64,000 nucleotides of DNA, from NCBI GenBank assembly GCA_964487045.1, contig CAZAOT010000003.1:72983-136982 (forward strand), given 5' to 3'. The notes below the pieces were generated by a model that ran no database searches, was not told the origin of the DNA, and saw only the letters and a program-made list of their open reading frames with translations. Shown in pieces: positions 4,933-21,620 of the stretch. The first letter of the stretch is position 1. Each line of letters starts with the position of its first letter. The DNA comes from an uncultured Candidatus Saccharibacteria bacterium. GTDB taxonomy: Bacteria > Patescibacteriota > UBA1384 > DTJR01. The translations under genes were made by a program, and so were the position numbers.

Positions 4933-6298
4933 TGTTCTCCTTTGATTCGCCCGAAAATTCGATCGATTCAGAATTCTTGGGGATATCTATTTCAATATTC
5001 ATCGTTTCTTTAATTTTGGCCATTAAAGCCTCTTTAGCTTCAGGCTCGCCGTGAACTAGAACGATTTTCTTAACATTTTTAATCTGCGAGACCCACTCGA
5101 CAAGTTTTGGTTGGTCAGCATGCGCGGAGTATGATTGTATCGGGATGATTTTTGCTTTGGAGAAAATTTCACTGCCTCTTATTTTAACTTCCTTATCTCC
5201 GTCAAGCAATCTTCGCCCAAGAGTGCCTTTTACCTGATAACCGACGATCAAAAGCGTTGTATTTTCCTTTGGCAAAAATGCTTTTTCGTGCCATTGAATT
5301 CTACCGCCATTCGACATTCCTGAGCCAGCAATGATGATTTTGGTCGATTCGTCCTTATCTAACTTCATTGAATCTTCGCTTTCTTCAATCATCTTTAGAC
5401 CTTTAAACTCGAAGAAGTCGTCGCCTGATTTTAAAAGGGCCGTAGCTTCGGCATTATAATACTGAGGATATTTAGCGTAAACTTCAGTCGCCTTAATCGC
5501 CAGCGGACTATCAAGATAAACAGGTATAAATGGAATGCTTCCGCCTTCAACTAGGCCGTTTAGTTCATATAGGATCTCTTGAGTTCTTTCCATTGCAAAT
5601 GATGGCATTAGAATAGTTCCATTTTCGCTAATCGAGTCTTTGATAATCTTCGTGAGCTGCTCTTTACGTTTTTCCATCGGTTCATGTTCTCGATCGCCAT
5701 AGGTCGATTCCATAATTACTAAGTCTGCTGATTCAATAAATTCAGTTTTCTTAAGCAGGGGAACTGGAGGATTGCCGAGATCACCCGAAAAAATAATTGT
5801 TTTTCCTTCTGCCTGGATTTTGACAATTGCTGATCCAAGAATATGACCCGCATCATAAAATTCGACTTCCACGCCTTCAATAGGTGAGAATTTCTCGTGA
5901 TAATTTTTTTCTTCAATTAAGGCAACTGTTTTAGCGACATCATCTAGATCATATAATGGTTGTTTATTAACGTACTCGGCTTCATTTTCCATTAAGTGGC
6001 ATGAGTCTTCGAGGAAAATTTTGGCAAATTCTTGAGTTGGCCCAGTAGCATAAATTTTTCCGCCAAATCCCATTTTTACCAGGTGTGGTGTTCGACCAAT
6101 GTGGTCAATGTGAGAGTGGGTCATGATCATCGCACCGACGTCTGCTGGGTTATAGGGGAACTCCTGCCAGTTTAAGACTGTTTCATCGTCCCCACCTTGA
6201 AACAGACCGCAGTCGATAATCAGTTTGCCAGCGCTAGTTTCAAGTAGATAATTTGATCCTGTCACACCTTCGGTAGCTCCACAGAATGTAATTTTCAT
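4922..6298 (-). CDS. MBL-fold metallo-hydrolase with beta-CASP RNA-metabolising domain (RNase J / CPSF-like)
   Basis: HSHIDHIG metallo-beta-lactamase motif near the N-terminus; length and C-terminal region fit beta-CASP ribonucleases. Confidence 0.8.
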   Translation of the reverse strand: MKITFCGATEGVTGSNYLLETSAGKLIIDCGLFQGGDDETVLNWQEFPYNPADVGAMIMTHSHIDHIGRTPHLVKMGFGGKIYATGPTQEFAKIFLEDSCHLMENEAEYVNKQPLYDLDDVAKTVALIEEKNYHEKFSPIEGVEVEFYDAGHILGSAIVKIQAEGKTIIFSGDLGNPPVPLLKKTEFIESADLVIMESTYGDREHEPMEKRKEQLTKIIKDSISENGTILMPSFAMERTQEILYELNGLVEGGSIPFIPVYLDSPLAIKATEVYAKYPQYYNAEATALLKSGDDFFEFKGLKMIEESEDSMKLDKDESTKIIIAGSGMSNGGRIQWHEKAFLPKENTTLLIVGYQVKGTLGRRLLDGDKEVKIRGSEIFSKAKIIPIQSYSAHADQPKLVEWVSQIKNVKKIVLVHGEPEAKEALMAKIKETMNIEIDIPKNSESIEFSGESKENNEV

Positions 6299-6990
6299 TC
6301 GTTGCTCCCTGCTTTATCTTTTTCTTCTTCCGTCTCAATCCCTATGATCTTGAGCGCCGAGCTTGTTCCAATTCGAGTGGCGCCTGCTTCAATCATACCC
6401 TTAGCCTCTTCGAATGTATGGATTCCGCCCGATGCTTTGACCTTTACCTCGTCCCCCACAGAAGCACGCATCGTCTTAATATCATCGATGGTCGATGGTC
6501 TTGGGCCGTAGCCAGTCGATGATTTCACAAATGCTGCTCCTGCTTTCTCGGCTCTCTTGCATGCTTCGGTTAGCTCTTCTTCTGTTAGAAAGCCAACTTC
6601 CATAATAACTTTGAGGCCAATTGGCTGAATCGCTGTTGCGATTTCCCTGATTTCTTCTTCGATAAAATCAAATTTCTTCTCTTTAATTGCTCCAATGTTA
6701 ACAACCATATCAATCTCGGTTGCGCCATCTTCTACAGCGAGCTTGGCTTCGGCTACTTTAATTTCGGTTTTTGAAATACCAAATGGAAAGCCAATTACAC
6801 TAATTACTTCAATATCGGCTCCTTCGAGATATTCTTTTGCGGCTGCTACGCGGTAGGTAGTGACGCAAACACTATGAAAACCATATTCCTTAGCTTCAGA
6901 GCAAAGCTTTTTGATGTCTTCATTTGTAGCATCTGCTTTGACACAAGTGTGGTCAATATAAGAAACGATATTTTCTTTTGTAATATTCAT
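6295..6990 (-). CDS. deoC: deoxyribose-phosphate aldolase
   Basis: N-terminal SYIDHT signature of DeoC; Lys-containing active-site region VKxSTGY; ~230 aa. Confidence 0.9.
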   Translation of the reverse strand: MNITKENIVSYIDHTCVKADATNEDIKKLCSEAKEYGFHSVCVTTYRVAAAKEYLEGADIEVISVIGFPFGISKTEIKVAEAKLAVEDGATEIDMVVNIGAIKEKKFDFIEEEIREIATAIQPIGLKVIMEVGFLTEEELTEACKRAEKAGAAFVKSSTGYGPRPSTIDDIKTMRASVGDEVKVKASGGIHTFEEAKGMIEAGATRIGTSSALKIIGIETEEEKDKAGSNE

Positions 6991-7130
6991 TAAATCTCCT
7001 CAAGTTTAGGTCCTTCGATTCCTGCCCCTCTACCTGACGCACTGCAATAACAGGACGGAGTCAGTTTTGCAGTAAGGAATGGTGTGGGGTGGTCAATATA
7101 TTTTCTAATTGATTGTTGATCTAGTTCCAT
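6990..7130 (-). other. uORF (46 aa) made of a diverged duplicate of the deoC N-terminus plus a conserved ~67-nt element; its stop overlaps the deoC ATG (TAATG)
   Basis: MELDQQSIRKYIDH-PTPFLTAKLTPSCYCSASGRGAGIEGPKLEEI*. The element (about 7024..7089) is ~89% identical to the copy at 13989..14055. Preceded by AGGAGG and a -10 TATAAT. Confidence 0.6.
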
Positions 7131-7245
7131 TTTCCCTCCTTATAACGATACAAATGCATTATAACATAATAACTTAAGTGTAAATGAAAAGAGAAAGGGC
7201 CGCCGTGTCGAATGACATGGCGGCCCTGGTTGTGCAGTGAGAGCT

Positions 7246-8581: not shown

Positions 8582-8617
8582 ATTTATCTAAGATTAACAT
8601 TTTGTTTCATAAATAAA

Positions 8618-8660
8618 AAAGAAAGCCCGGGCGCTCCACTGGGGAGGGCTCGGGCTTGAT
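8618..8660 (-). terminator. Rho-independent terminator for the G+C-rich cassette
   Basis: Minus strand: AAGCCCGAGCCCTCCCCAGTGGAGCGCCCGGGCTT followed by TCTTTTTTATTT. Confidence 0.6.
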
Positions 8661-8678
8661 GAGGCGTGGTAGCGGGTG

Positions 8679-8939
8679 CTACCGGAGGTTTCGGCGCTGA
8701 TCCGCGGTGGGGTTCTTGCCCACGTTTGAGTTGCCGACCGTCCGCTTTCGCACGATCCAGTCGGCAAGGAGCACGAAGGCGCTGATCGTGGCAGTGATGG
8801 CAGTCATGTAGAGCGTCGGCTTGCTCTTAAACATGATGCCAAAAGCGATGAAAAGCGGGGTAGTGGGGAAGAGGAAGAATTTGAACAATCTCCTCTTTCC
8901 CTTGGTGAGAAAAGACTTCGGCTTGAGTGACTTCATCAT
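8679..8939 (-). CDS. small membrane protein (G+C-rich cassette gene 3)
   Basis: GGGAGG RBS; one or two TM helices; 15 nt downstream of the preceding gene. Confidence 0.45.
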   Translation of the reverse strand: MMKSLKPKSFLTKGKRRLFKFFLFPTTPLFIAFGIMFKSKPTLYMTAITATISAFVLLADWIVRKRTVGNSNVGKNPTADQRRNLR

Positions 8940-8953
8940 AGTCCTCCCTGTTT

Positions 8954-9523
8954 CTAGCCCTTGCAGTCAGGGCATACGATCGTGATTTGGTTTCCTACGC
9001 CGGACCCTGTGTCCGGAATGAAGGGATCTCCACAGCGGAAGCAGTATCTGGGTTCACCTGCAACCAGCTTCTTGTCTGCATCCGAGCAGACCTTGCACTT
9101 GCGGGGATTCCAGAGGTTGCGTCTGCTTGGGGTATAAGCACCGCAATGTGGGCAGTAGAAGTGTGTCATTAGGCGTTGCCCAGTGCTCTTGGCGACAGGC
9201 GGGATCCAGCGCTTGATCGTGAAGCGCTGCTCCAAACCAGGGTGCAACTCTACCGTAGCGCCGTGGCCGCTGGTAGCTCGGACAGCAAAGCCGTTTTCCA
9301 GAAAGAGGTTCGCTATCTGCGCGAGTTCGCCCAGAGGTTCCTGGTTGAGGGCAGTTGCCAACTCAACATAGCATAGTTCTTCTGGAATGCTAGCGGCAGG
9401 CTGGTTGATTTCGACAGCGATACGAGCTTGCTGCTCCTCGGGTAGATTTGCCAATAAGGCAGTAATCCGCCCCTTGAGCGCGTCTGCTTCTTGGCTTGTA
9501 CTGGTGACTCGGGCGCGGATCAT
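8954..9523 (-). CDS. hypothetical protein with C-terminal double CxxC zinc ribbon (G+C-rich cassette gene 2)
   Basis: AGGGAG RBS; C-terminus CPHCG...CKVCS...CFRCG...CPDCKG. Confidence 0.55.
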   Translation of the reverse strand: MIRARVTSTSQEADALKGRITALLANLPEEQQARIAVEINQPAASIPEELCYVELATALNQEPLGELAQIANLFLENGFAVRATSGHGATVELHPGLEQRFTIKRWIPPVAKSTGQRLMTHFYCPHCGAYTPSRRNLWNPRKCKVCSDADKKLVAGEPRYCFRCGDPFIPDTGSGVGNQITIVCPDCKG

Positions 9524-10074: not shown

Positions 10075-10149
10075 GGGCCTGTAGCTCAGTGGTAGAGCAG
10101 TTGCCTTTTAAGCAACGTGTCGTGGGTTCGATACCCACCAGGCCCTCCA
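10075..10149 (+). tRNA. tRNA-Lys (anticodon UUU), CCA encoded
   Basis: Cloverleaf: acceptor GGGCCTG/CAGGCCC, D-arm AGCTCAGTGGTAGAGC, anticodon stem GTTGC/GCAAC with loop CTTTTAA, T-arm GTGGGTTCGATACCCAC. Confidence 0.9.
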
Positions 10150-10341: not shown

Positions 10342-10761
10342 ATGAGTAAGCGCATCCTGGTGGTTGATGATGAGCGCCACATCGTCCGTCTGGTTAAGCT
10401 CAACCTGGAACGCGCCGGCGGCTATGACGTCCTGACAGCGTACGACGGGATCGAGGCTCTGGGCAAAGTCAAGACCGAGAGCCCCGATATGGTGGTGCTC
10501 GACATCATGATGCCCCGGATGGACGGTTACGAAGTACTGCGTAACTTGCAAGCAGATCCCAGCTGCCAGAACATACCCGTGATCATGCTGACCGGCAAGG
10601 ACCAGGACGCCGACTTCTTCAAGGCCTGGGCCAGTGGGTTGAGGGCATATATGACAAAGCCCTTTGATCCCCAAGAATTGCTGACATTCATCCAACGGAT
10701 CTTCGAGGCCGATCAAATCGGGTATGGGGATGATACAGATGATTCGTGCTTTGAAGTGTAA
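10342..10761 (+). CDS. stand-alone response-regulator receiver (CheY-like) protein
   Basis: LVVDDE...DVLTAYDG...VVLDIMMPRMDG...MLTGK...KPF receiver signature. AAGAGG RBS. G+C-rich. The opposite-strand ORF 10198..10863 is a shadow. Confidence 0.85.
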   Translation: MSKRILVVDDERHIVRLVKLNLERAGGYDVLTAYDGIEALGKVKTESPDMVVLDIMMPRMDGYEVLRNLQADPSCQNIPVIMLTGKDQDADFFKAWASGLRAYMTKPFDPQELLTFIQRIFEADQIGYGDDTDDSCFEV

Positions 10762-10782
10762 TGTAGCTTGCCCCTCTCGATT

Positions 10783-10830
10783 CCCATGCCCGCATCTGCT
10801 CCGGAGGCTTTGCGGGCATTCTTTTTCTAA
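10783..10830 (+). terminator. Rho-independent terminator
   Basis: ATGCCCGCA-loop-TGCGGGCAT followed by TCTTTTTCT. Confidence 0.6.
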
Positions 10831-11003
10831 ATAGTTAACACCCATTTTATAAAGTCCAAACACAAATTTTTCAAAATTAGTTCAATCTGAGCCACAGGTG
10901 AAATTTCGCGTTCCACCCGCGAAATCCCCAGAAATAAAATTGCCCCGTTAGGGGCTATTTTAATTATTTAGAGATGTTTCCAGTCGTGTGATATATTAGT
11001 CCT

Positions 11004-11453
11004 ATGGTCAAATCTCATCCAAAAGTAGGTGTTGGCATTATCGTCATCAAGAAAGAAAATGGCAAAGATTTTGTAATGCTCCATCAGCGCAAAGGAAGAA
11101 ATGGGCTAGGCAAGGACTATTGGGGCAGTGGTGGAGGACACCTGGAATTGGGTGAATCGCTGGAGGCCGGTGCGCTTCGGGAGCTCAAAGAGGAAGCAGG
11201 AGGCAAACTGAAGGTAAAAAATGTGAGATTCTTAGGTGTGATTAACTTTACCGAAATGAATCCAAAACACTATGTCGATGTCAGTTTTGTAGCCGATTGG
11301 GTGTCCGGGGAACCAATTAACAATGCTCCCGAGGAAACAACCGACTGGAAGTGGTTTGCGCTGGATGAGCTACCAAGCCCGCTCTTTCCGCCAGTAGAGC
11401 ATTATCTGGAAGCGCTCGAGACAGGGCAAAGTTTTTTTGATTCGTCGTTTTAG
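11004..11453 (+). CDS. NUDIX hydrolase
   Basis: Nudix box GGGHLELGESLEAGALRELKEEAG. Confidence 0.85.
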   Translation: MVKSHPKVGVGIIVIKKENGKDFVMLHQRKGRNGLGKDYWGSGGGHLELGESLEAGALRELKEEAGGKLKVKNVRFLGVINFTEMNPKHYVDVSFVADWVSGEPINNAPEETTDWKWFALDELPSPLFPPVEHYLEALETGQSFFDSSF

Positions 11454-13816: not shown

Positions 13817-13845
13817 TTGACTAATCGGCGAAAATAGTGTATATT
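13817..13845 (+). promoter_or_regulatory. sigma70-type promoter upstream of the typA uORF
   Basis: TTGACT - 17 nt - TATATT. Confidence 0.5.
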
Positions 13846-13953
13846 CTATTGGTTGTAAACAGCCAAAGAAGGCTTTTTGATCTATTTCGCATAGCGAAGA
13901 GATCAACCCTTCCATAGCTCTTTGAGCGAAGGAGGGTATTCTTTTTAAAAATT

Positions 13954-14070
13954 ATGATTCGAAACGTTGCGATTATTGCTCATGTAGACCCCACACCGCT
14001 CCTTACTGCAAAACGGATTCCATCCTGTTATTGCAGTGCGTCAGGTCGAGGGGCGAGAGATGACAAATAA
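13954..14070 (+). other. uORF (38 aa) made of a synonymous-recoded duplicate of the typA N-terminus plus a conserved ~67-nt element (13989..14055)
   Basis: MIRNVAIIAHVD-PTPLLTAKRIPSCYCSASGRGARDDK*. The first 12 codons give the same amino acids as typA codons 6-16, with 6 synonymous nucleotide differences. The element is the reverse complement of 7024..7089. Confidence 0.6.
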
Positions 14071-14081
14071 AATTTTGCCAA

Positions 14082-15902
14082 ATGGATATGAATAAAATTA
14101 GAAATGTAGCTATCATAGCTCATGTAGACCACGGAAAGACCACGCTTGTCGATGGTCTATTAAAGCAGTCCCATACTTTTCGTGACAACCAAGCCGAGAT
14201 GAATCAGACGCTCATTATGGACTCAAACGATCAGGAGAGAGAGCGCGGAATTACAATTTTGGCTAAAAATACCGCAGTAAATTACAAAGATACTAAAATT
14301 AATATTATTGATACTCCTGGCCACGCCGATTTCGGTGGGGAGGTGGAGCGAACGCTCAATATGGCAGATGGCGCGATCCTTGTAGTTGATGCTCAAGAAG
14401 GACCAATGCCTCAAACAAAGTTTGTTTTGAAAAAAGCGCTTGATTTAGGGCTAAAGATTATTGTAGTAATAAACAAAATTGATAAGAAAAATGCGCAAGT
14501 TGAAAGTGTTATAGAAAGAACTTCAGATCTATTTCTTGATTTAGCTTCTGATGAGTCACAGCTCGAATTTCCAATTTTGTTTTCAATTGCCAAGCAAGGT
14601 AAGGCTTGGAGCGAAATGCCACAGAATTTTGAAGAAGACGGTGATCTTTCGAAAATTTTTGAAGCAATTTTGCAGTATATTCCTGCGCCAAAAGTCGAAG
14701 AGGGTCCATTTCAGATGCTTGTATCGGCCTTGGATTGGGATAGCTATCAGGGAAAATACGCAATCGGAAAAATTTCAAGAGGAAAAGCGATGGCTGGTCT
14801 TCAGGTGAGTTTGGTAAATGAAGATGGCGTAAAAGAAAATACTCGAATTGATAAGATTTTTGTTAGCAGCGGTTTGGTCAAACAAGAAGTTAAGGAAGCC
14901 GTGTGTGGCGACATTGTTTCAATTACCGGAATTAAGAACGCTGGAATTGGCGAAACAATCGCTGATCAGACGAGTCCCGAGGCTCTGCCGGGCATAAGTA
15001 TAGAAGAGCCGACCCTTTCGATGGCAATTTCAGCCAATACTTCGCCATTTGCTGGCAAGGAAGGTAAGTTTGTTACTGGCCGACAAATTTTAGACAGAAT
15101 TAAAAAAGAACTAGAGACAAACGTTTCGCTAAAATTTAAACAGGGCGAGGAAGGCGAATATATTCTCTCTGGCCGAGGCGAACTTCACTTGTCCGTCTTT
15201 ATTGAAACTCTTCGTAGAGAAGGTTTTGAGCTTCAAGTTGGTAAGCCACAGGTTATTATCAAAGAGATTGATGGCATTAAGAGCGAACCACTTGAAGAAT
15301 TAACGGTTGATGTCGAAGATCAGTATGTAAATAACGTGATCGCCGAGGTTATAAGACGAAAAGGTGTTTTGCATCATCAGAACCCACTTCTTGATGGCAC
15401 GACCAGGCTTATTTTTGAAATTACAACGCGTGGAATGCTCGGTCTTAGAAGCCAACTAATGACTCTTTCGCGCGGAACAGCTGTCGCTAACTCGATATTT
15501 TTAAGATTTGAAAAAGTTATGAGCGAAATTCCAAGACTTCGAAACGGAGTTTTGATCGCTTCTGAAGATGGCAAGGCTGTAACTTATGGGCTTGATATAG
15601 CTCAGGGCCGAGGAATCACATTTATCGAGCCACAACAGCAAGTCTATAAAGGTATGATTATCGGGCTTAATTCAAAAGAGTCTGATATCGAAATCAATGT
15701 AGCCAAAGAGAAGCATTTGACCAATATTCGAGCTGCTTCTTCTGATATGACCACGGTTTTGACCCCAGCAACAATTTTGTCACTTGAACAATGTATTGAC
15801 TTTTTGGAAGATGACGAGCTTCTTGAGGTTACTCCAACGTCACTTCGACTTCGAAAGAAGATACTCGATCCAACGCAGCGAAATAGAGCTAGAATTCGCT
15901 AA
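14082..15902 (+). CDS. typA: translational GTPase TypA/BipA
   Basis: AHVDHGKTT, DTPGHADF and NKID G-motifs; EF-G-like domain order; ~600 aa. Confidence 0.95.
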   Translation: MDMNKIRNVAIIAHVDHGKTTLVDGLLKQSHTFRDNQAEMNQTLIMDSNDQERERGITILAKNTAVNYKDTKINIIDTPGHADFGGEVERTLNMADGAILVVDAQEGPMPQTKFVLKKALDLGLKIIVVINKIDKKNAQVESVIERTSDLFLDLASDESQLEFPILFSIAKQGKAWSEMPQNFEEDGDLSKIFEAILQYIPAPKVEEGPFQMLVSALDWDSYQGKYAIGKISRGKAMAGLQVSLVNEDGVKENTRIDKIFVSSGLVKQEVKEAVCGDIVSITGIKNAGIGETIADQTSPEALPGISIEEPTLSMAISANTSPFAGKEGKFVTGRQILDRIKKELETNVSLKFKQGEEGEYILSGRGELHLSVFIETLRREGFELQVGKPQVIIKEIDGIKSEPLEELTVDVEDQYVNNVIAEVIRRKGVLHHQNPLLDGTTRLIFEITTRGMLGLRSQLMTLSRGTAVANSIFLRFEKVMSEIPRLRNGVLIASEDGKAVTYGLDIAQGRGITFIEPQQQVYKGMIIGLNSKESDIEINVAKEKHLTNIRAASSDMTTVLTPATILSLEQCIDFLEDDELLEVTPTSLRLRKKILDPTQRNRARIR

Positions 15903-17852: not shown

Positions 17853-18962
17853 ATGGATAATATTCTCGAGCCTCCCAGTACGCATAGGCGAGGCCTAAAA
17901 ATAAATAGAATACGACAAAGCGCTCCAAGCGCTTTTGCCGGTTTTGGATTAAAAATCCTCAATAATTTGGAAAACTTGCGTCTATCGATCAGGAAACTGA
18001 TCTTTTTTATTAGGGGTCATATTATTTCGTTTAAAGAATTTGCTAAATTGCACGGTGTTAACCGCTCGCTTGCTTATAAATTTGCGATTGTAGCGGCCAT
18101 TGCACTTCTTCCAGTTCTCTCTAAAGTCACAGCTGAAGATCAGGCTTATGAAGATGTAATTCACTATAGTCAGACAATTGACCCGGTTGAGTCTGCTCGA
18201 TTCGCAGTTTATTTTTCCGGCTATACTCCTGGGCTTTATATTGATGCCGACCAAGTTGCCCTAAATGCAGTTACTAATAACGAGTCATATACTCTGGAGC
18301 AGCAGTTAGCGGTGAATCAAGGTAAGGATTACGCGGTTGAGGGTCGTCAGGAACCGACATATGTTCTAAAATCAGGCGAAACGATTGCTGACGTTGCTTC
18401 TAAGTTTGACTTACATGTCGGAACTCTAGTTGATGCCAACGGACTTGATCCGGTGAATTTGAAGAATGTGAGACCAGGTACAACCTTGATGATTCCTTCA
18501 TCGGATACCAATACTTCAAATGACTGGCTGATTGCAATCAACAAAGATGAAGCTGAGAAGAAGCAAAAAGCGGCTGAGGAAGCAGCCAAAAAGAAAGCGG
18601 AACAGGCCAAGAAGGTAGCTTCAGCGAGCAACAATGTAACAGCTACTGGAACGGTTGCCGGAGCAACGACAAGAAGGCAGGTCAGTTCTGAAGTGACCGT
18701 TATCGGAACTTCTTATTCACAGTGTGTTCCTTGGGCGAGAGAAAATTCCGGAATTGCAATTCAAGGATATGCGGGCAATATTTCTGCTACTCAATCAGAG
18801 CCGAGGGTTGGGGGAGTAGCTCTTGATCGATTTTATGGCCATGCCTCGGTGGTAGTAGAGGTTGGCTCTGATTATATAGTTGTACATGAAGCCAACTGGA
18901 TCCATGGCAAGATTACCAAAAGAAAAGTTTCTAAAGATGCTATCCGCGGATACGTGTATTAG
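17853..18962 (+). CDS. LysM + CHAP-domain peptidoglycan hydrolase, membrane-anchored
   Basis: LysM segment (YVLKSGETIADVASKFDLHVGTLVDANGL). C-terminal CHAP Cys/His region (QCVPWAREN...GHASVVVEV...HEANW). Promoter TTGACA-16-TAGAAT upstream. Confidence 0.8.
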   Translation: MDNILEPPSTHRRGLKINRIRQSAPSAFAGFGLKILNNLENLRLSIRKLIFFIRGHIISFKEFAKLHGVNRSLAYKFAIVAAIALLPVLSKVTAEDQAYEDVIHYSQTIDPVESARFAVYFSGYTPGLYIDADQVALNAVTNNESYTLEQQLAVNQGKDYAVEGRQEPTYVLKSGETIADVASKFDLHVGTLVDANGLDPVNLKNVRPGTTLMIPSSDTNTSNDWLIAINKDEAEKKQKAAEEAAKKKAEQAKKVASASNNVTATGTVAGATTRRQVSSEVTVIGTSYSQCVPWARENSGIAIQGYAGNISATQSEPRVGGVALDRFYGHASVVVEVGSDYIVVHEANWIHGKITKRKVSKDAIRGYVY

Positions 18963-19009
18963 TAAGTTTTCAGTAAAAATTAAGAAATTACCTGGTATAA
19001 TCAAGCTCG

Positions 19010-20209
19010 ATGAAAAAAATTGCTTTAAGTTTACTTGCGATATTTGTATTATTTTCTTTTGTTGCAATTAAGCCAGTTCTAGCCGAGGATAGCCAAAATA
19101 CGATAAAGATCTATGAATTTTGGAGTAAATATTGTCCTCACTGCAAGGCCGAAAATGAATTTTTAACTAAGATTTCTAAGGAGAGAGGGGACTTTGAAGT
19201 AATTTCTTATGAAGTTACCTCAGATCAAGGTAGCGCAGCTTTATTTAAAAAATTCTCCGATGCGTGTGGTAACAAGGGCTATGGTGTCCCAGCGCTCTAT
19301 ATTGGAGATCGATCGGTAATAGGATTTGAGAGTGCCGAAACAACGGGTAAGGAGATCGTTACGGTGCTTGATTCATTTAAAGGCAAAGATTATCCAGATC
19401 CACTGAAAATTGTCGAGAGTGGGGGAGGCTTCAAGTCGGGGAGTGAGCTCTGCAGCAAAGAATCTATTGAGACAAAAAGAAAAATTCCGCTACTTGGCGA
19501 GGTGGATTTAGCTAAATTTTCTGCACCGGCTTTAGCGGTGGTTCTTGGAACGGTCGATGGATTTAACCCATGCGCAATGTGGGCGCTAGTGGCTCTGCTT
19601 ACTCTGCTCGTCTCGCTTGGTAGCCGAAAAAGGTTATTACTGGTCGGAGGTACTTTCCTAATCACCTCTTGGCTGATCACCTTCTTCTTCTTGTCGGCCT
19701 TTATGAATGCATTTACATTTGTAAAATTTGATTTAGCGATGAGGATTGTGATTGGGGTTGTAGCGATCTATACCTCATATCAATTATTTAAAAGTTATCA
19801 GAAAGAAACCGAAGAGTGTAAAGTTAATTCAGGCAAGGGAAGAATTTATAAACAGATAGAAAAGCTCTCTAGCTCCAAGGTGATCCCCTTCTTGATCTTT
19901 GGTGCGATCGCTCTTGCGCTGATGGTCAATGTCGTAGAATTTATGTGCTCGATCAATCTTCCGGTTGTTTTCACTAAAGTTCTCTCAATGGTGAATGTTA
20001 GTCCTCTGGGACGATATCTGTATATCGCTCTGTACGACGTTTTTTATATGCTCGACGATATCATCGTATTCTTGATCGCTCTTTTCTCGATGAAGGCTTT
20101 TACTGGATTTAATCAAAAATACACCCGTTTTACGAAATTAGTGGGTGCTATCGTGATGTTTATTTTGGCTGTGATGTTACTGTTCTTTCCGAGGCTATTG
20201 GCGTTTTAG
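19010..20209 (+). CDS. thioredoxin-fold domain fused to a DsbD/CcdA-like membrane thiol:disulfide transporter
   Basis: Signal peptide; CPHC thioredoxin motif; TM domain with a conserved Cys in NPCAMW. Confidence 0.8.
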   Translation: MKKIALSLLAIFVLFSFVAIKPVLAEDSQNTIKIYEFWSKYCPHCKAENEFLTKISKERGDFEVISYEVTSDQGSAALFKKFSDACGNKGYGVPALYIGDRSVIGFESAETTGKEIVTVLDSFKGKDYPDPLKIVESGGGFKSGSELCSKESIETKRKIPLLGEVDLAKFSAPALAVVLGTVDGFNPCAMWALVALLTLLVSLGSRKRLLLVGGTFLITSWLITFFFLSAFMNAFTFVKFDLAMRIVIGVVAIYTSYQLFKSYQKETEECKVNSGKGRIYKQIEKLSSSKVIPFLIFGAIALALMVNVVEFMCSINLPVVFTKVLSMVNVSPLGRYLYIALYDVFYMLDDIIVFLIALFSMKAFTGFNQKYTRFTKLVGAIVMFILAVMLLFFPRLLAF

Positions 20210-20476
20210 TACTATCTTAAAAATTTTTATTTATTATTTTCAATTTTTAATTGATTGGCCCATTTAGCTATTGAAATATTTAAAATAAGTCAATAACTCA
20301 ATCAATAACAAATATAAAATATTAAATCTTAAATAAAGAGAAGCGCATGATGTGCTTCTCTTCTTCCCGAAGTTGTTATCGTTCTAACATTGACTTGTCT
20401 GCTGATTTTGTCTAATATCTGCTTATCGGAGGCTTTGATCCTTCGGTATTTCTTCAAATCGGCAGGAGGGAGCGTC

Positions 20477-20851
20477 ATGCCGAGGGATTCGATTCTCTAC
20501 GAAAAAGCCAGGGCGAGGTGGGAGTATGCTTCACATCTTCCATCTCGCAGTACAGTCAGGCAGTATTCGCTCAAGTGTTTCGCATTAGTATACCCGGTCG
20601 AAGTTTTGCGGGAATACTGGCGTGTAGACGCGTTGTCGCGCCAGAGTCTAATGGTATCGTCTCACAGCTTTGCCCCTTCTCCCGCTGAACTTGCAGCCAT
20701 GGCAGAAGGGCGTGACCGTAATGAACGGCGCGCAAATCAAGCCAGGGCGAGACTCGAAAGGATGGCGACGGAGCACGGGGTGGACCTAGATGCGATGGCT
20801 GATGATATCGCATTCGTTTGGCACAACTGGAGTCTGCTTGAGCTCGAGTAG
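20477..20851 (+). CDS. hypothetical protein (G+C-rich)
   Basis: AGGAGGGAG RBS before the ATG at 20477; promoter TTGACT-17-TAATAT at ~20387-20415; terminator follows. Confidence 0.45.
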   Translation: MPRDSILYEKARARWEYASHLPSRSTVRQYSLKCFALVYPVEVLREYWRVDALSRQSLMVSSHSFAPSPAELAAMAEGRDRNERRANQARARLERMATEHGVDLDAMADDIAFVWHNWSLLELE

Positions 20852-21439: not shown

Positions 21440-21487
21440 CCTCCGCTCCGTGAATTGCGCTCTTCGTCGGAAGCAATTCCGGAAGCC
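21440..21487 (-). promoter_or_regulatory. Second copy of the conserved leader motif (GGGGCTTCCGG-GAATTGC..GCAATTC-GGAGCGGAGG)
   Basis: Near-identical to 12424..12473. Confidence 0.5.
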
Positions 21488-21620
21488 CCGCATCAATTCA
21501 CGAAGCGAAACACGAATGAATAATTCGAGTGGAGCATTCGAGAATTCGGTGCTGGGGCATTTCATTATTTTCCCTAACAAAAACATTATACCAAATTCTT
21601 ATATAACTTTTACAATAGTG

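Follow-up and report, generated by a model that had tools for sequence, protein, structure and literature searches.

The typA gene of this stretch of DNA is preceded by what looks like a second start of the same gene, with a short element between the two. What is this element, which of the two starts is native, and how does the gene remain intact? We addressed these questions in the whole 64,000-nucleotide stretch (the window) and in related loci. The explanation that we favour, and hold to be reasonably probable, is a family of miniature non-coding mobile DNA elements of CPR (Berkelbacteria-like) bacteria, in which a hairpin core is combined with a gene-end replacement cassette.

Two gene starts and a hairpin core at typA

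The features of the locus are as follows.

13817..13845, +, promoter-like TTGACT-17-TATATT from a consensus scan (10/12 matches), putative resident typA promoter
13928..13936, +, GAAGGAGGG, resident Shine-Dalgarno (SD)-like sequence as read from the letters; L029, a relative whose site is empty, has the colinear GAAAGGGGC...ATG
13954..14070, +, uORF of 38 aa plus TAA: MIRNVAIIAHVD, the core-encoded PTPLLTAKRIPSCYCSASGRGA, then RDDK
13954..13989, +, left copy: typA codons 1-12, judged resident, which the insertion separates from the rest of the gene
13978..13990, +, left identity block GCTCATGTAGACC, adjoining the core and the same as 14118-14130
13989..14057, +, core: 69-nt imperfect hairpin (covariance model, 89.7 bits, E = 3.5e-21)
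13990..14129, +, inserted DNA as judged against the empty typA allele, 140 nt (period 140 nt; register ambiguous inside the identity block)
14058..14081, +, tail: element-borne spacer with the uORF stop, absent from L029 and partly alignable to the tail of L031
14082..14129, +, right copy: typA codons 1-16 (MDMNKIRNVAIIAHVD), judged element-borne, now the working N-terminus
14118..14130, +, right identity block GCTCATGTAGACC, probable crossover region
14082..15902, +, typA (BipA), 606 aa, intact; Pfam GTP_EFTU and BipA_C in homologs

An initial sequence-only reading of this region had described an upstream start, ATG ATT CGA AAC GTT GCG ATT ATT GCT CAT GTA GAC. It is found at 13954 and encodes MIRNVAIIAHVD, and its 6 differences from typA codons 6-16 are synonymous in 6/6 cases, as had been stated. 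The uORF stop (TAA, 14068-14070) was likewise correctly placed 11 nt upstream of the typA ATG at 14082, and the 13 nt said to be identical beside the element in both duplicates are GCTCATGTAGACC at 13978-13990 and 14118-14130. The element itself, given as 67 nt (13989-14055), is present as described and the unit now extends to 69 nt (13989-14057). The same reading had credited the upstream start with a promoter and a ribosome-binding site: the promoter-like TTGACT-17-TATATT is in keeping with the first, but GAAGGAGGG is spaced 17 nt from the ATG at 13954, which is long for an SD site.

A second copy at deoC

The other copy in the window lies upstream of deoC on the reverse strand.

6295..6990, -, deoC, 231 aa, intact
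6949..7020, -, tail and right copy (SD GAGGAG, then MNITKENIVSYIDH); the empty alleles L030, L025 and L028 have a colinear native 5' UTR and start
6990..7130, -, uORF of 46 aa (MELDQQSIRKYIDH plus core peptide), its TAA overlapping the deoC ATG (TAATG)
7021..7089, -, second core copy (91.7 bits, E = 9.8e-22)
7089..7130, -, left copy of 14 codons, MEL type; it has an SD of its own (7134-7141) and is colinear with the native start in empty L027

The repeat period is 140 nt, and the uORF is also called as an ORF in the Logan assemblies L019 and L020. The identity of ~89% first reported between the two cores holds, with 60/67 positions matching at 7023-7089 on the minus strand. Both cores do encode the shared peptide that had been pointed out, but this is a by-product of the conserved DNA, and other loci use another frame. 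With two covariance models run with filters off, no confident copy beyond these two was found in the window; a faint core-like match at 21486-21559 (12.5-13.5 bits, E about 0.6-1) is insignificant.

The core is a conserved hairpin

The core is palindromic, CCCC(A)CACC ... GGTG..GGGG, with 22 pairs, and its sole ORF is the read-through uORF. Over 21 copies, compensatory changes occur in 14/22 base pairs and 96% of cells are paired, in a sample (~20 copies) drawn entirely from one 20-mer seed or one reading frame and biased to close relatives. Shuffles gave 3.8 +/- 1.5 pairs changed on both sides and slid controls at most 6. The 7-bp stem with a compensatory inner-stem change that had been noticed earlier is thus real, and the covariation in further homologs that was to decide its case strengthens it. 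The unpaired loops YTCCTT and GCGTCA are conserved and invariant among copies; the apical hairpin varies in length (L005, L009, L031). Folding z-scores are only -1.3 to -1.7 for the core and +0.4 for the whole leader; the case for structure rests on covariation and not on energy. Zero chance matches are expected for a 45-nt pattern of the element.

Two further ideas about the core were dismissed. Its length is 68-71 nt, or 99 nt where the apex is longer, and is thus not universally divisible by three. Nor does it appear designed to be open in three frames: 7% of shuffles are stop-free and several copies have stops in unused frames.

Covariation of this kind is what a riboswitch or leader RNA would display, and a DNA hairpin would display it equally. 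We therefore considered that the core might be a cis-regulatory leader RNA (riboswitch, thermosensor or anti-SD) which, with a leader peptide, controls the gene, the similarity of the two starts being functional mimicry. We judge this improbable. The conserved structure, the position within transcribed 5' leaders, the invariant coupling of uORF and gene, the anti-SD-like conserved loop YTCCTTA and the long forms that finish with GGAGCGGAGG directly ahead of the start codon all speak for it. Against it, neither form of the element, short or long, had a relevant Rfam match, whether gathering thresholds or E <= 10 were applied, and the leader as a whole lacks unusual stability. Moreover, G.U pairs are not commoner than C.A mismatches in the core copies (8 vs 9), which thus carry no strand or RNA signature. 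Evidence from the insertion sites, given below, also argues against it.

Distribution and layout of the element

The copies elsewhere on which the first reading had made its case depend do exist: the core recurs in many independent CPR metagenome assemblies. By sequence comparison, the conserved hairpin is established, and so is the architecture at >10 loci. Core sites include typA (2 genomes), lepA, deoC (2), tsaD and three Rossmann-fold epimerase/dehydratase genes, besides tRNA-like 3' ends, DnaA boxes and SD sites.

typA: window and L031
lepA: L032/L033
deoC: window and L021-23
tsaD: L017
epimerase-like genes: L008, L013, L024
tRNA-like 3' ends: L012, L014 (cores in tandem in L014)
DnaA boxes: L004

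An assembly or chimera artefact has a negligible chance of accounting for this. The sources are metagenome-assembled sequences, and chimerism had been raised as a concern, but independent assemblies of many samples, made by different pipelines (NCBI, JGI, ENA and Logan), show the same architecture, with intact reading frames and compensatory variation.

The order at protein genes is invariable: a short copy of the gene start, the core, a tail of 20-36 nt, and a second copy of the gene start that continues into the intact gene. From the first copy, a uORF runs through the core and stops between 8 nt inside and 11 nt before the real start (9/9 protein-coding loci). The repeat period is a constant 140-143 nt in five unrelated genes, which the mobile-element reading does not account for and which counts against it. 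At tRNA-like loci the core is antisense to the gene and the layout relative to the core is unchanged. The RNA gene beside the core in L012 has a T arm, an acceptor 3' strand and ACCA; we term it only tRNA-like because neither ARAGORN nor Rfam calls a tRNA.

Insertion after a His or Asp codon, which had been raised as a question, is not universal. In 11 non-SD loci, A stands at the junction and the target continues with a pyrimidine. The description of the element as targeting gene starts also proved too narrow, since cores are also found at DnaA boxes, at SD sequences and, in antisense orientation, at the 3' ends of tRNA-like genes. What the sites have in common is a very conserved short motif near a gene end. 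This variety of sites, antisense tRNA-like ends included, means that the phenomenon acts on DNA and not on translation. It is also difficult to reconcile with leader-RNA control: the genes downstream of cores are functionally unrelated (typA, lepA, deoC, tsaD, sugar epimerases, rpsT, gap, membrane proteins), and some copies are placed between DnaA boxes or in antisense at the 3' ends of tRNA-like genes.

At typA, left copy resident and right copy foreign

The closest typA relative, L029 (90% identical TypA), has an empty site, with no core, and is colinear with the left copy of the window and its 5' UTR (3 differences in 36 nt). Among TypA proteins, the five closest (87-90% identical) begin MIRNVAIIAHVDHGKTT, and the closest all start MIRNV. 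The right copy resembles the native start of a distant lineage, L034; its N(K/R)-IRN extension and its codons AAT GTA GCT ATC, both absent from close relatives, are common to the right copies of the window and L031. These alignments identify the left typA copy as resident and the right typA copy as foreign. The first reading had offered, as one of two options, that the upstream copy was brought in; it is the downstream copy that is foreign, the upstream copy and its 5' UTR being colinear with empty L029. Since the upstream copy is resident and the downstream copy foreign-like, the DNA inserted at typA would comprise core, tail and downstream copy, 140 nt in all. The tail (14058..14081) has no similarity to the window's own 5' UTR and is probably the 5' UTR of the donor allele, as far as its sequence tells.

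Directly past the junction, the typA body shares 87% identity with the empty relative, against 77% with filled L031, so that the foreign DNA ends at the right identity block. Homing-style co-conversion of the gene body was, by the same figures, not seen in typA.

The lepA left copy remains translationally coupled (TAATG) to the upstream cca gene. Differences between the copies are synonymous only (6/6 in window typA, 3/3 in L031, 5 codons in lepA) and include codon-family switches (Arg CGC/AGG in lepA, Ser TCG/AGT in tsaD); on this pattern, the two gene-start copies have diverged as working genes. The earlier argument that neutral decay of a target-site duplication cannot produce synonymous-only divergence, and that one copy came from another allele, is upheld. 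A target-site duplication of ~72 nt from the same genome was dismissed, as the tails are unlike their own 5' UTR (Stouffer Z = 0.26). Empty sites without the core were found for typA (L029) and deoC (L030, L025, L027, L028), and the core is, in these alignments, polymorphic for presence and absence between close relatives. Both this absence at the same gene in close relatives and the xenologous origin of one copy, which mimicry leaves unexplained, weigh further against a leader RNA.

At deoC the polarity is either opposite to that at typA or masked by later loss. The closest empty deoC relative, L030, has an N-terminus of the right-copy type, which counts against the mobile-element reading. 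DeoC N-terminus types are interleaved on body-based clustering, on N-termini too short to prove recombination.

Junctions and the mode of spread

The identity beside the core is 11-16 nt in typA, lepA and deoC, and 1-5 nt in tsaD, rfbB and tRNA-like loci. A short target-site duplication of fixed length does not describe these junctions, at which identity ranges from 1-3 nt (rfbB, tRNA-like) up to 15-16 nt (lepA); the longer flanking repeats are imperfect and come from different alleles. The identity block is the same within a genome and different between genomes (typA CAT/CAT vs CAC/CAC; deoC TTGACC vs TCGATC). This concerted identity requires gene conversion or repeated recombination, a single integration being insufficient. 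In tsaD the downstream sequence of the target is repeated after the core (11/11 nt, at the exact position), and the same is suggestive in a tRNA-like locus; such a piece of downstream flank after the core needs a unit of the form flank-core-flank. Duplication of the downstream flank was rejected as a general feature, being significant in tsaD only and absent from typA and deoC.

Matched blocks of 11-16 nt at possible take-off and landing sites (typA, lepA, deoC), identical within each genome, could also suggest recoding. The upstream copy would then be the true N-terminus (MIRNVAIIAHVDHGK), and the core, tail and second copy would be skipped by translational bypassing or removed at the RNA level; the left copies do retain protein-like sequence. 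We consider this very improbable. The block is only 1-5 nt in tsaD, rfbB and the tRNA-like loci, where the core is moreover antisense in the tRNA-like genes; the take-off site lacks a stop codon and 140 nt would have to be skipped; the start of the downstream copy, usually provided with an SD, lies exactly at the uORF stop; and recent resident origin accounts for the protein-like left copy. The mobile-element model makes the opposite prediction for TypA, namely an N-terminus MDMNK..., a translated uORF and no MIRNVAIIAHVDHGK peptide.

A further account dispenses with dedicated mobility. The hairpin would have entered each gene once, long ago, with rescue by local tandem duplication (replication slippage or template switching), spread of the composite locus between related lineages by ordinary homologous recombination following uptake of DNA, and mosaics arising from repeat recombination or gene conversion. 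Several observations suit it: the two deoC loci look orthologous, left copy resembling left and right resembling right; the concerted identity block suggests gene conversion between repeats; the DeoC N-terminus types are interleaved as described; the tandem cores of L014 fit slippage; and the tsaD and tRNA-like loci resemble an interrupted pseudo-fragment followed by an intact copy. In addition, no recombinase was found among the 20 ORFs flanking the window copies. We nevertheless think this account unlikely. Homologous recombination should put the right crossover anywhere in the body, and typA has no co-conversion tract. Cores of different genes are ~90% identical, yet their flanking repeats differ by up to ~35%; the tails are unlike the 5' UTR of the same genome and hence carry no trace of local duplication; and both the 140-143 nt period in five unrelated genes and the ultra-conserved sites are left unexplained.

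A model for the mobile element

In the mobile-element model, the integrated unit would be the hairpin core plus a 3' cassette of about 71-74 nt, the cassette being the nearest end of the target gene copied from another lineage. At protein genes it would contain the 5' UTR/SD, the start codon and the first 7-17 codons, and at tRNA-like genes the 3' end. The proposed entry point is a short, extremely conserved motif near the gene end; in typA these are the P-loop codons AHVD|HGKT. The resident gene end would be stranded 5' of the core, whilst the cassette, joined to the body, would preserve an intact gene. Still equipped with a promoter and SD of its own, the stranded start would open the uORF through the core, ending at or beside the new start codon, and the downstream gene would be expressed by translational coupling or reinitiation.

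We infer that the element inserts by conservative, homology-guided (Campbell-like) recombination within the identity block that borders the core on its 5' side. A recombinase, presumably supplied in trans, may recognise the core, possibly in the form of a folded single strand, and anchoring in invariant motifs would let the element move between diverged hosts. The model predicts that an empty typA junction would read ...CGAAACGTTGCGATTATTGCTCATGTAGACCACGGAAAG, and that a circle or tandem junction (right copy, then core) would read ...AGAAATGTAGCTATCATAGCTCATGTAGACCCCACACCGC. Excised or circular forms were not observed, and a 140-bp double-stranded circle would be physically awkward, both of which count against the mobile-element reading.

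A bolder version can be offered tentatively, as a possibility: a natural, retargetable form of homology-guided insertion. A trans recombinase would act on the folded 69-nt hairpin, and a ~72-nt cassette of ruler-set length would both pick the site and spare the gene. The free unit of ~140 nt, probably a single-stranded circle, would move between orthologs of distant CPR via invariant motifs, swapping essential N-termini.

Searches for a partner or a parent gave no match. No recombinase or transposase was found within ~10 kb of either window copy or beside the fetched copies, which counts against the mobile-element reading, and no autonomous IS sharing the ends was found in ~250 kb of fetched loci or in the window. 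Searched with blastn, 50,697 phage and 72,556 plasmid records yielded no match; IMG/VR scans yielded one chance match inside a coding gene. Peptide and profile searches for an in-frame insertion in a full-length protein (5.8 + 1.8 billion proteins) returned only uORFs of 45-49 aa, and an insertion at AHVD|HGKTT occurs in 0 of the 120 top TypA homologs.

Significance

The element was initially described as matching no known IS, MITE, intron, intein or riboswitch class, and indeed no family matched. It was also thought to be mobile or regulatory and to create a coupled uORF: a small mobile element with a coupled uORF agrees with our results, but nothing requires or supports a regulatory role. 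Full-text literature searches turned up no account of such an element, and we know of no described elements of ~140 bases that bring a spare gene start.

If the mobile-element reading is true, the element represents a new route to harmless selfish DNA, a 140-nt non-coding element inside a catalytic motif at near-zero cost. The cost within essential genes (translational GTPases, tsaD, tRNA-like) would be near zero because a spare gene end is carried. It would also be the smallest known case of a strategy of integrating into a gene and restoring it, hitherto known from prophages and genomic islands. The reading would account for the odd short ORFs and atypical N-termini of CPR genomes, and essential-gene N-termini and 5' UTRs would have a route of exchange between lineages. 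A recombinase with a ruler is suggested by the invariant-loop hairpin, the homology block and the repeat period of 140-143 nt; such an enzyme would be of practical interest if the carried homology sets the targeting. The loci would in addition be natural cases of obligate translational coupling across a structured insert.

Comparison with known systems

Small non-coding repeats (RPE, Correia/NEMIS, ERIC, REP/BIME) are, like the core, hairpin-forming, multicopy and co-transcribed, and the core has the palindromic, non-coding character of MITEs and palindromic repeats. RPE-type and MITE-like repeats sometimes sit translated inside reading frames, as the core does, but the core is not a translated internal segment of a functional full-length protein. 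Unlike MITE-like repeats, it has no fixed-length target-site duplication, no plain in-frame insertion in a full-length protein and no known partner transposase, and it comes with a gene-specific replacement cassette placed precisely in invariant motifs.

Integron attC sites and the XerCD-used CTX-phage attP(+) share the imperfect hairpin, the conserved unpaired bases and the variable apex, and offer, by analogy, a plausible model for recognition of the core by a trans-acting recombinase. The likeness to attC goes no further than form: RYYYAAC/GTTRRRY, the R''/R' consensus, is missing from the stem base, the AAC/GTT pairing being mid-stem and the ends CCCC/GGGG; the sites are coding motifs; and there is no intI, attI or dif context nearby.

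Homing introns and inteins likewise occupy the most conserved motifs of conserved genes (GTPase P-loop, tRNA), are patchy among close relatives and evidently move between orthologs of diverged hosts. The element differs from them in that there is no splicing, no endonuclease gene and no co-conversion tract, and the gene end is duplicated. The core, at 69 nt, also falls short of the >=200 nt or >=130 aa expected of an intron or intein, and had no Rfam intron match.

Like coupled uORFs and leader peptides, the uORF terminates where the main ORF begins; unlike a leader peptide, it would be a by-product of insertion, a displaced native start reading through the element. Matched blocks flanking an inserted segment recall mitochondrial byp elements and T4 gene 60, but bypassing is not supported here.

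Integrative elements (prophages, ICEs and genomic islands) can carry in attP a copy of the end of the tRNA, tmRNA or protein gene that they target, in line with the Campbell model. Here too the gene is kept intact by a supplied replacement end (typA, lepA), the resident end is left as a partial copy opposite, conserved genes are targeted, and an identity block, present at both junctions, marks the crossover. As in integrative elements at tRNA genes, the tRNA-like sites lie in the T-loop region and the 3' end is replaced. Integrative elements are kilobases long and encode an integrase, in contrast to a unit of ~140 nt with no gene, and thus no integrase, of its own. The element also departs from them in that one core family serves many target genes, mostly at the 5' ends of protein genes, in that this core is a hairpin, and in that the displaced start is reused as a coupled uORF.

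Layout of the element

The region upstream of typA proved to be as the sequence-only reading described it: an upstream open reading frame (uORF) opens with a synonymous duplicate of the gene's start, passes in frame through the conserved element and stops short of the typA ATG. That reading also placed a similar element at deoC, which is present on the minus strand. The features are:

13817-13845, + strand: promoter-like site upstream of the typA uORF
13928-13936: GAAGGAGGG, upstream of the typA uORF start
13954 (start) to 14068-14070 (TAA): uORF of 38 aa beginning MIRNVAIIAHVD...; the typA ATG (14082) is 11 nt further on
7023-7089, minus strand: second element copy, identical at 60/67 positions and placed relative to deoC as the first copy is to typA

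The 11 codons after the uORF ATG correspond to typA codons 6-16, with six nucleotide differences (6/6 synonymous), and the last 13 nt of the duplicate (GCTCATGTAGACC) are identical in both copies. At deoC, the uORF starts MELDQQSIRKYIDH and the gene starts MNITKENIVSYIDH; each has 14 codons up to a shared His. The stop of the uORF overlaps the deoC start (TAATG). Two covariance models, run with filters off, gave no further confident copies of the hairpin core in the 64-kb window. Between two minus-strand genes, at 21486-21559 (+), there is a weak match (12.5-13.5 bits, E about 0.6-1, not significant) whose ends resemble those of the family (CCCCGCATC...GGTGCTGGGGCA); it may be a decayed copy. 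The window also carries an ordinary tRNA gene at 10075-10146 (+; 72.8 bits).

The element occurs in many CPR assemblies. A 20-mer from it matched 13 metagenome contigs and three genome loci, of which two belong to one MAG and the third to a Candidatus Berkelbacteria MAG; a fourth match was due to chance. The best named homologs of the window TypA and DeoC are likewise from Berkelbacteria/Patescibacteria. Searches with the element peptide, directly and as a profile, recovered more uORFs and their loci. The element had no match in Rfam and was not found in phage and plasmid collections. Nor was a published description of such an element found in the literature searched, whose incomplete coverage makes this weak evidence of novelty.

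All short-form copies at protein genes have the same layout: a short gene-start copy (left), the core, a tail of 20-36 nt, and a second gene-start copy (right) that is continuous with the intact gene.

Gene-start copies flanking the core. The repeat period is the distance between equivalent positions in the two copies.
typA, window: period 140 nt
deoC, window: period 140 nt
typA, second genome (L031): left MIRNVAIIAHVD; right MNQNRIRNVAIIAHVDHGKT; period 170 nt, core 30 nt longer
lepA (L032/L033): left MELDHIRNFCIIAHID; right MNEMSHIRNFCIIAHIDHGKS; period 140 nt
deoC, second genome (L021-23): left MELTTESIKKYIDH; right MDITKQNINFYIDHTCV; period 141 nt (L021)
tsaD (L017): left ..ILAIETSCD; right ..YILAIETSCDETAA; period 143 nt
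Rossmann-fold epimerase/dehydratase (L008): left KIIVT; right MSKIIVTGGAGF
Rossmann-fold epimerase/dehydratase (L013): left MRKILIT; right MNNILVTGGAGF
Rossmann-fold epimerase/dehydratase (L024): left MDKVLVTGGNGF; right MSKILVTGGNGFIG; period 142 nt
Six other loci: period 89-136 nt

In five different genes, 71-74 nt separate the core end from the junction, of which 37 to 51 nt are coding; the distance is shorter at other loci. Its near-constancy in the five looks like a ruler. At 9/9 loci the uORF stop lies close to the main start, from 8 nt inside it to 11 nt before it, and often forms an ATGA or TAATG overlap. The reading frame through the core varies among loci. Thus, the in-frame peptide noted earlier is indeed encoded by both window copies but results from conserved DNA; it is no conserved protein.

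Origin of the two gene-start copies

All five of the closest TypA proteins (87-90% identity) start MIRNVAIIAHVDHGKTT, as the window's upstream copy does. No core is present on the contig of the closest one (L029), where the 5' UTR and the first 12 codons are colinear with that upstream copy (3 differences/36 nt). An N-terminal extension in the window's downstream copy (MDMNKIRNV...) is missing in close relatives; the extension and the codons AAT GTA GCT ATC are common to the downstream copies of the window typA and of L031. The downstream copy and the tail end can also be aligned to L034, in the native start region of this distant typA lineage (L034 ATATGCAAAATAATAAAATCAGAAATGTCGC; window ATATG......AATAAAATTAGAAATGTAGC). 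Directly past the junction, the first 90 nt of the typA body are host-like again (87% identical to L029 vs 77% to L031). With a resident-like upstream copy, a foreign-like downstream copy and a host-like body, the inserted typA DNA consists of the core, the tail and the downstream copy. The insert is 140 nt (13990-14129), with a sharp right-hand end within the identity block.

At lepA, the upstream copy is still in its native operon context: it overlaps the stop codon of cca, the gene before it. The two gene-start copies differ at synonymous sites only, including codon-family switches (Arg CGC/AGG in lepA, Ser TCG/AGT in tsaD), so the copies diverged while part of functional orthologs and only later came together. 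The suggestion that the alleles had diverged as working genes and that one is foreign therefore holds, but the upstream copy had been proposed as the newcomer, and colinearity with L029 assigns that role to the downstream one.

The resident copy is less clear at deoC. Alleles without the element are of both N-terminus types: L027 is like the left copy, and L030, L025 and L028 are like the right copy with its 5' UTR. The types are interleaved on the gene-body tree. Two readings fit: the crossover may have occurred at the other end of the homology, or the left copy and core may have been lost later in some lineages. In the empty L030 deoC allele, the 5' UTR (700-780) is longer by about 25 nt (ACGGTTTGCGGTTTGTCGCAA, a small hairpin), placed exactly where the window has its left copy and core; this extra stretch could be a scar of element loss. 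In L025, a gene of the 23S-rRNA-intervening-sequence protein family (10723-11091) lies directly behind deoC.

The identity block is the same within a genome and different between genomes (typA CAT/CAT vs CAC/CAC; deoC TATATTGACCA vs TATATCGATCA), which points to gene conversion or repeated recombination there. The main rival to integration by the element itself is a passive history, in which each gene received one ancient insertion with a rescuing duplication that then spread via ordinary homologous recombination with gene conversion. Such a history fits the concerted identity blocks and the deoC pattern, but neither the sharp end of the foreign DNA nor the constant period. The tails show no similarity to the 5' UTR of the same genome, so the repeat is not a simple long target-site duplication. 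At tsaD, the 11 nt behind the core equal the 11 nt downstream of the insertion site in the intact gene, and a downstream-flank piece lies behind the core at a tRNA-like locus too, more weakly; hence at least some units are flank-core-flank.

Structure of the core

Across 21 copies the proposed core structure is 96% paired. Its outer helices are CCCC/GGGG and CACC/GGTG; inside them come a 10-bp middle helix, in which one A is bulged, and a short apical hairpin, which is 20-30 nt longer at three loci (L005, L009 and L031). Two-sided changes occur in 14/22 core pairs in these copies, compared with 3.8 +/- 1.5 in shuffles and at most 6 with slid partners. The unpaired stretches YTCCTT and GCGTCA hardly vary. 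Cores in different genes are highly similar, which does not fit a passive history. Taken alone, the predicted folding energy is unremarkable. G.T mismatches are no commoner than C.A mismatches, so the data do not discriminate between RNA and single-stranded DNA as the folded form.

Long forms of the element (L002 2467-2640; L016; L003 6656-6815 (= L011); L005; L006; L009) fold well (z = -3.8 to -4.3). Additional hairpins lie 5' of the core and after it (L002/L016, L003), and the extra 5' domain contains a T-loop-like hairpin (GGCGGTTCCATCCCGCC). These forms are usually directly behind an AAGGAGGG, and their 3' hairpin is followed by GGAGCGGAGG immediately ahead of the start codon (rpsT, gap and membrane-protein genes). 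Possibly they are a variant whose targets are SD sequences and which brings its own SD.

Target sites

All targets are short, extremely conserved motifs close to one gene end (P-loop AH(V/I)D^HGK; YIDH^T; ETSCD^ET; VT^GGAGF; GGNGF^IG; T loop; DnaA box; SD), a choice that a passive history does not fit. The base preceding the core is A in 11/11 non-SD loci. Locus L004 has copies at DnaA boxes on both sides of dnaA, and L017 has a minus-strand copy in an intergenic site with imperfect repeats of 17-20 nt. Two L017 cores (388-456, minus; 507-573, plus) stand head to head, 50 nt apart, with the left tsaD fragment only between them.

At two loci, L012 and L014, the core directly adjoins a tRNA-like 3' end in reverse complement, comprising T loop, T stem, acceptor strand and NCCA. 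L012 has a second, complete-looking 3' end 45 nt past the core with a different acceptor-stem sequence; neither ARAGORN nor Rfam called this gene, hence only 'tRNA-like'. The core is antisense to the RNA gene at both loci and the layout relative to the core is the same, which rules out explanations acting through translation alone and places the duplication at the level of DNA. Translational bypassing is unlikely, as is a purely regulatory RNA. The RNA-like gene at L012 1-130 ends in a T arm, acceptor strand and ACCA, has a long internal stem (GTCCCGA...TCGGGAC) and may be a tRNA with an intron, its 5' part lying outside the locus sequence. L014 6-148 (minus strand) has two tandem cores 9-15 nt apart beside a partial tRNA 3' end, with a tRNA-Tyr gene 31 nt away; the first core is strongly diverged and fully compensated (CCCCGTATA...TATACGGGG; TCCGCAA/TTGCGGA).

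Proposed mechanism

The best-supported reading is that core and cassette form a miniature, non-autonomous integrative element. The hairpin core would be the recognition site, and the adjacent cassette a copy of the target's gene end carried by the element. Integration would be conservative, by one crossover within the short identity block that borders the core on its 5' side (Campbell geometry), displacing the resident gene end and fusing the cassette to the gene body. The typA and lepA pattern would follow from a crossover close to the core, and the deoC pattern from one at the far end of the homology. Gene expression would depend on ribosomes that initiate at the resident SD and start codon, translate the core and stop at the new start codon. 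Anchoring in invariant motifs could allow a homology-dependent element to move among hosts with TypA identities of only 74-81%. No recombinase gene was found near any core copy.

Other insertions

The TypA homolog P0133 has an unrelated 26-aa in-frame insertion (residues about 199-228; ..VPTSQTVGIPTGSPTILSDSDPKRRS..) relative to a 91%-identical TypA. The inserted peptide looks like a translated palindromic repeat, and these genomes may hold another small element that inserts in frame. In L028, a LepA homolog of 753 aa (18312-20573, minus strand) has a PDDEXK_3 nuclease domain between two GTP_EFTU matches, an arrangement that suggests an intein-like or endonuclease insertion into this relative's GTPase domain; the same locus has a GIY-YIG gene at 8613-8984.

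Comparison with known systems

Like the element, prophages and genomic islands integrate into a gene end and restore the gene (from their attP), but an encoded integrase is their defining feature; the element has none and is two orders of magnitude smaller. MITEs and RPE-type palindromic repeats are alike in form, yet the element has neither a fixed short target-site duplication nor a simple in-frame insertion mode. It also resembles folded-hairpin recombination sites (attC) in form, although the attC consensus is missing, and shares with homing introns and inteins the logic of anchoring in invariant motifs. If a homology-guided, ruler-based mechanism were confirmed, the element could be categorically new; we classify it as a gene-end-restoring integrative element in miniature, non-coding form.
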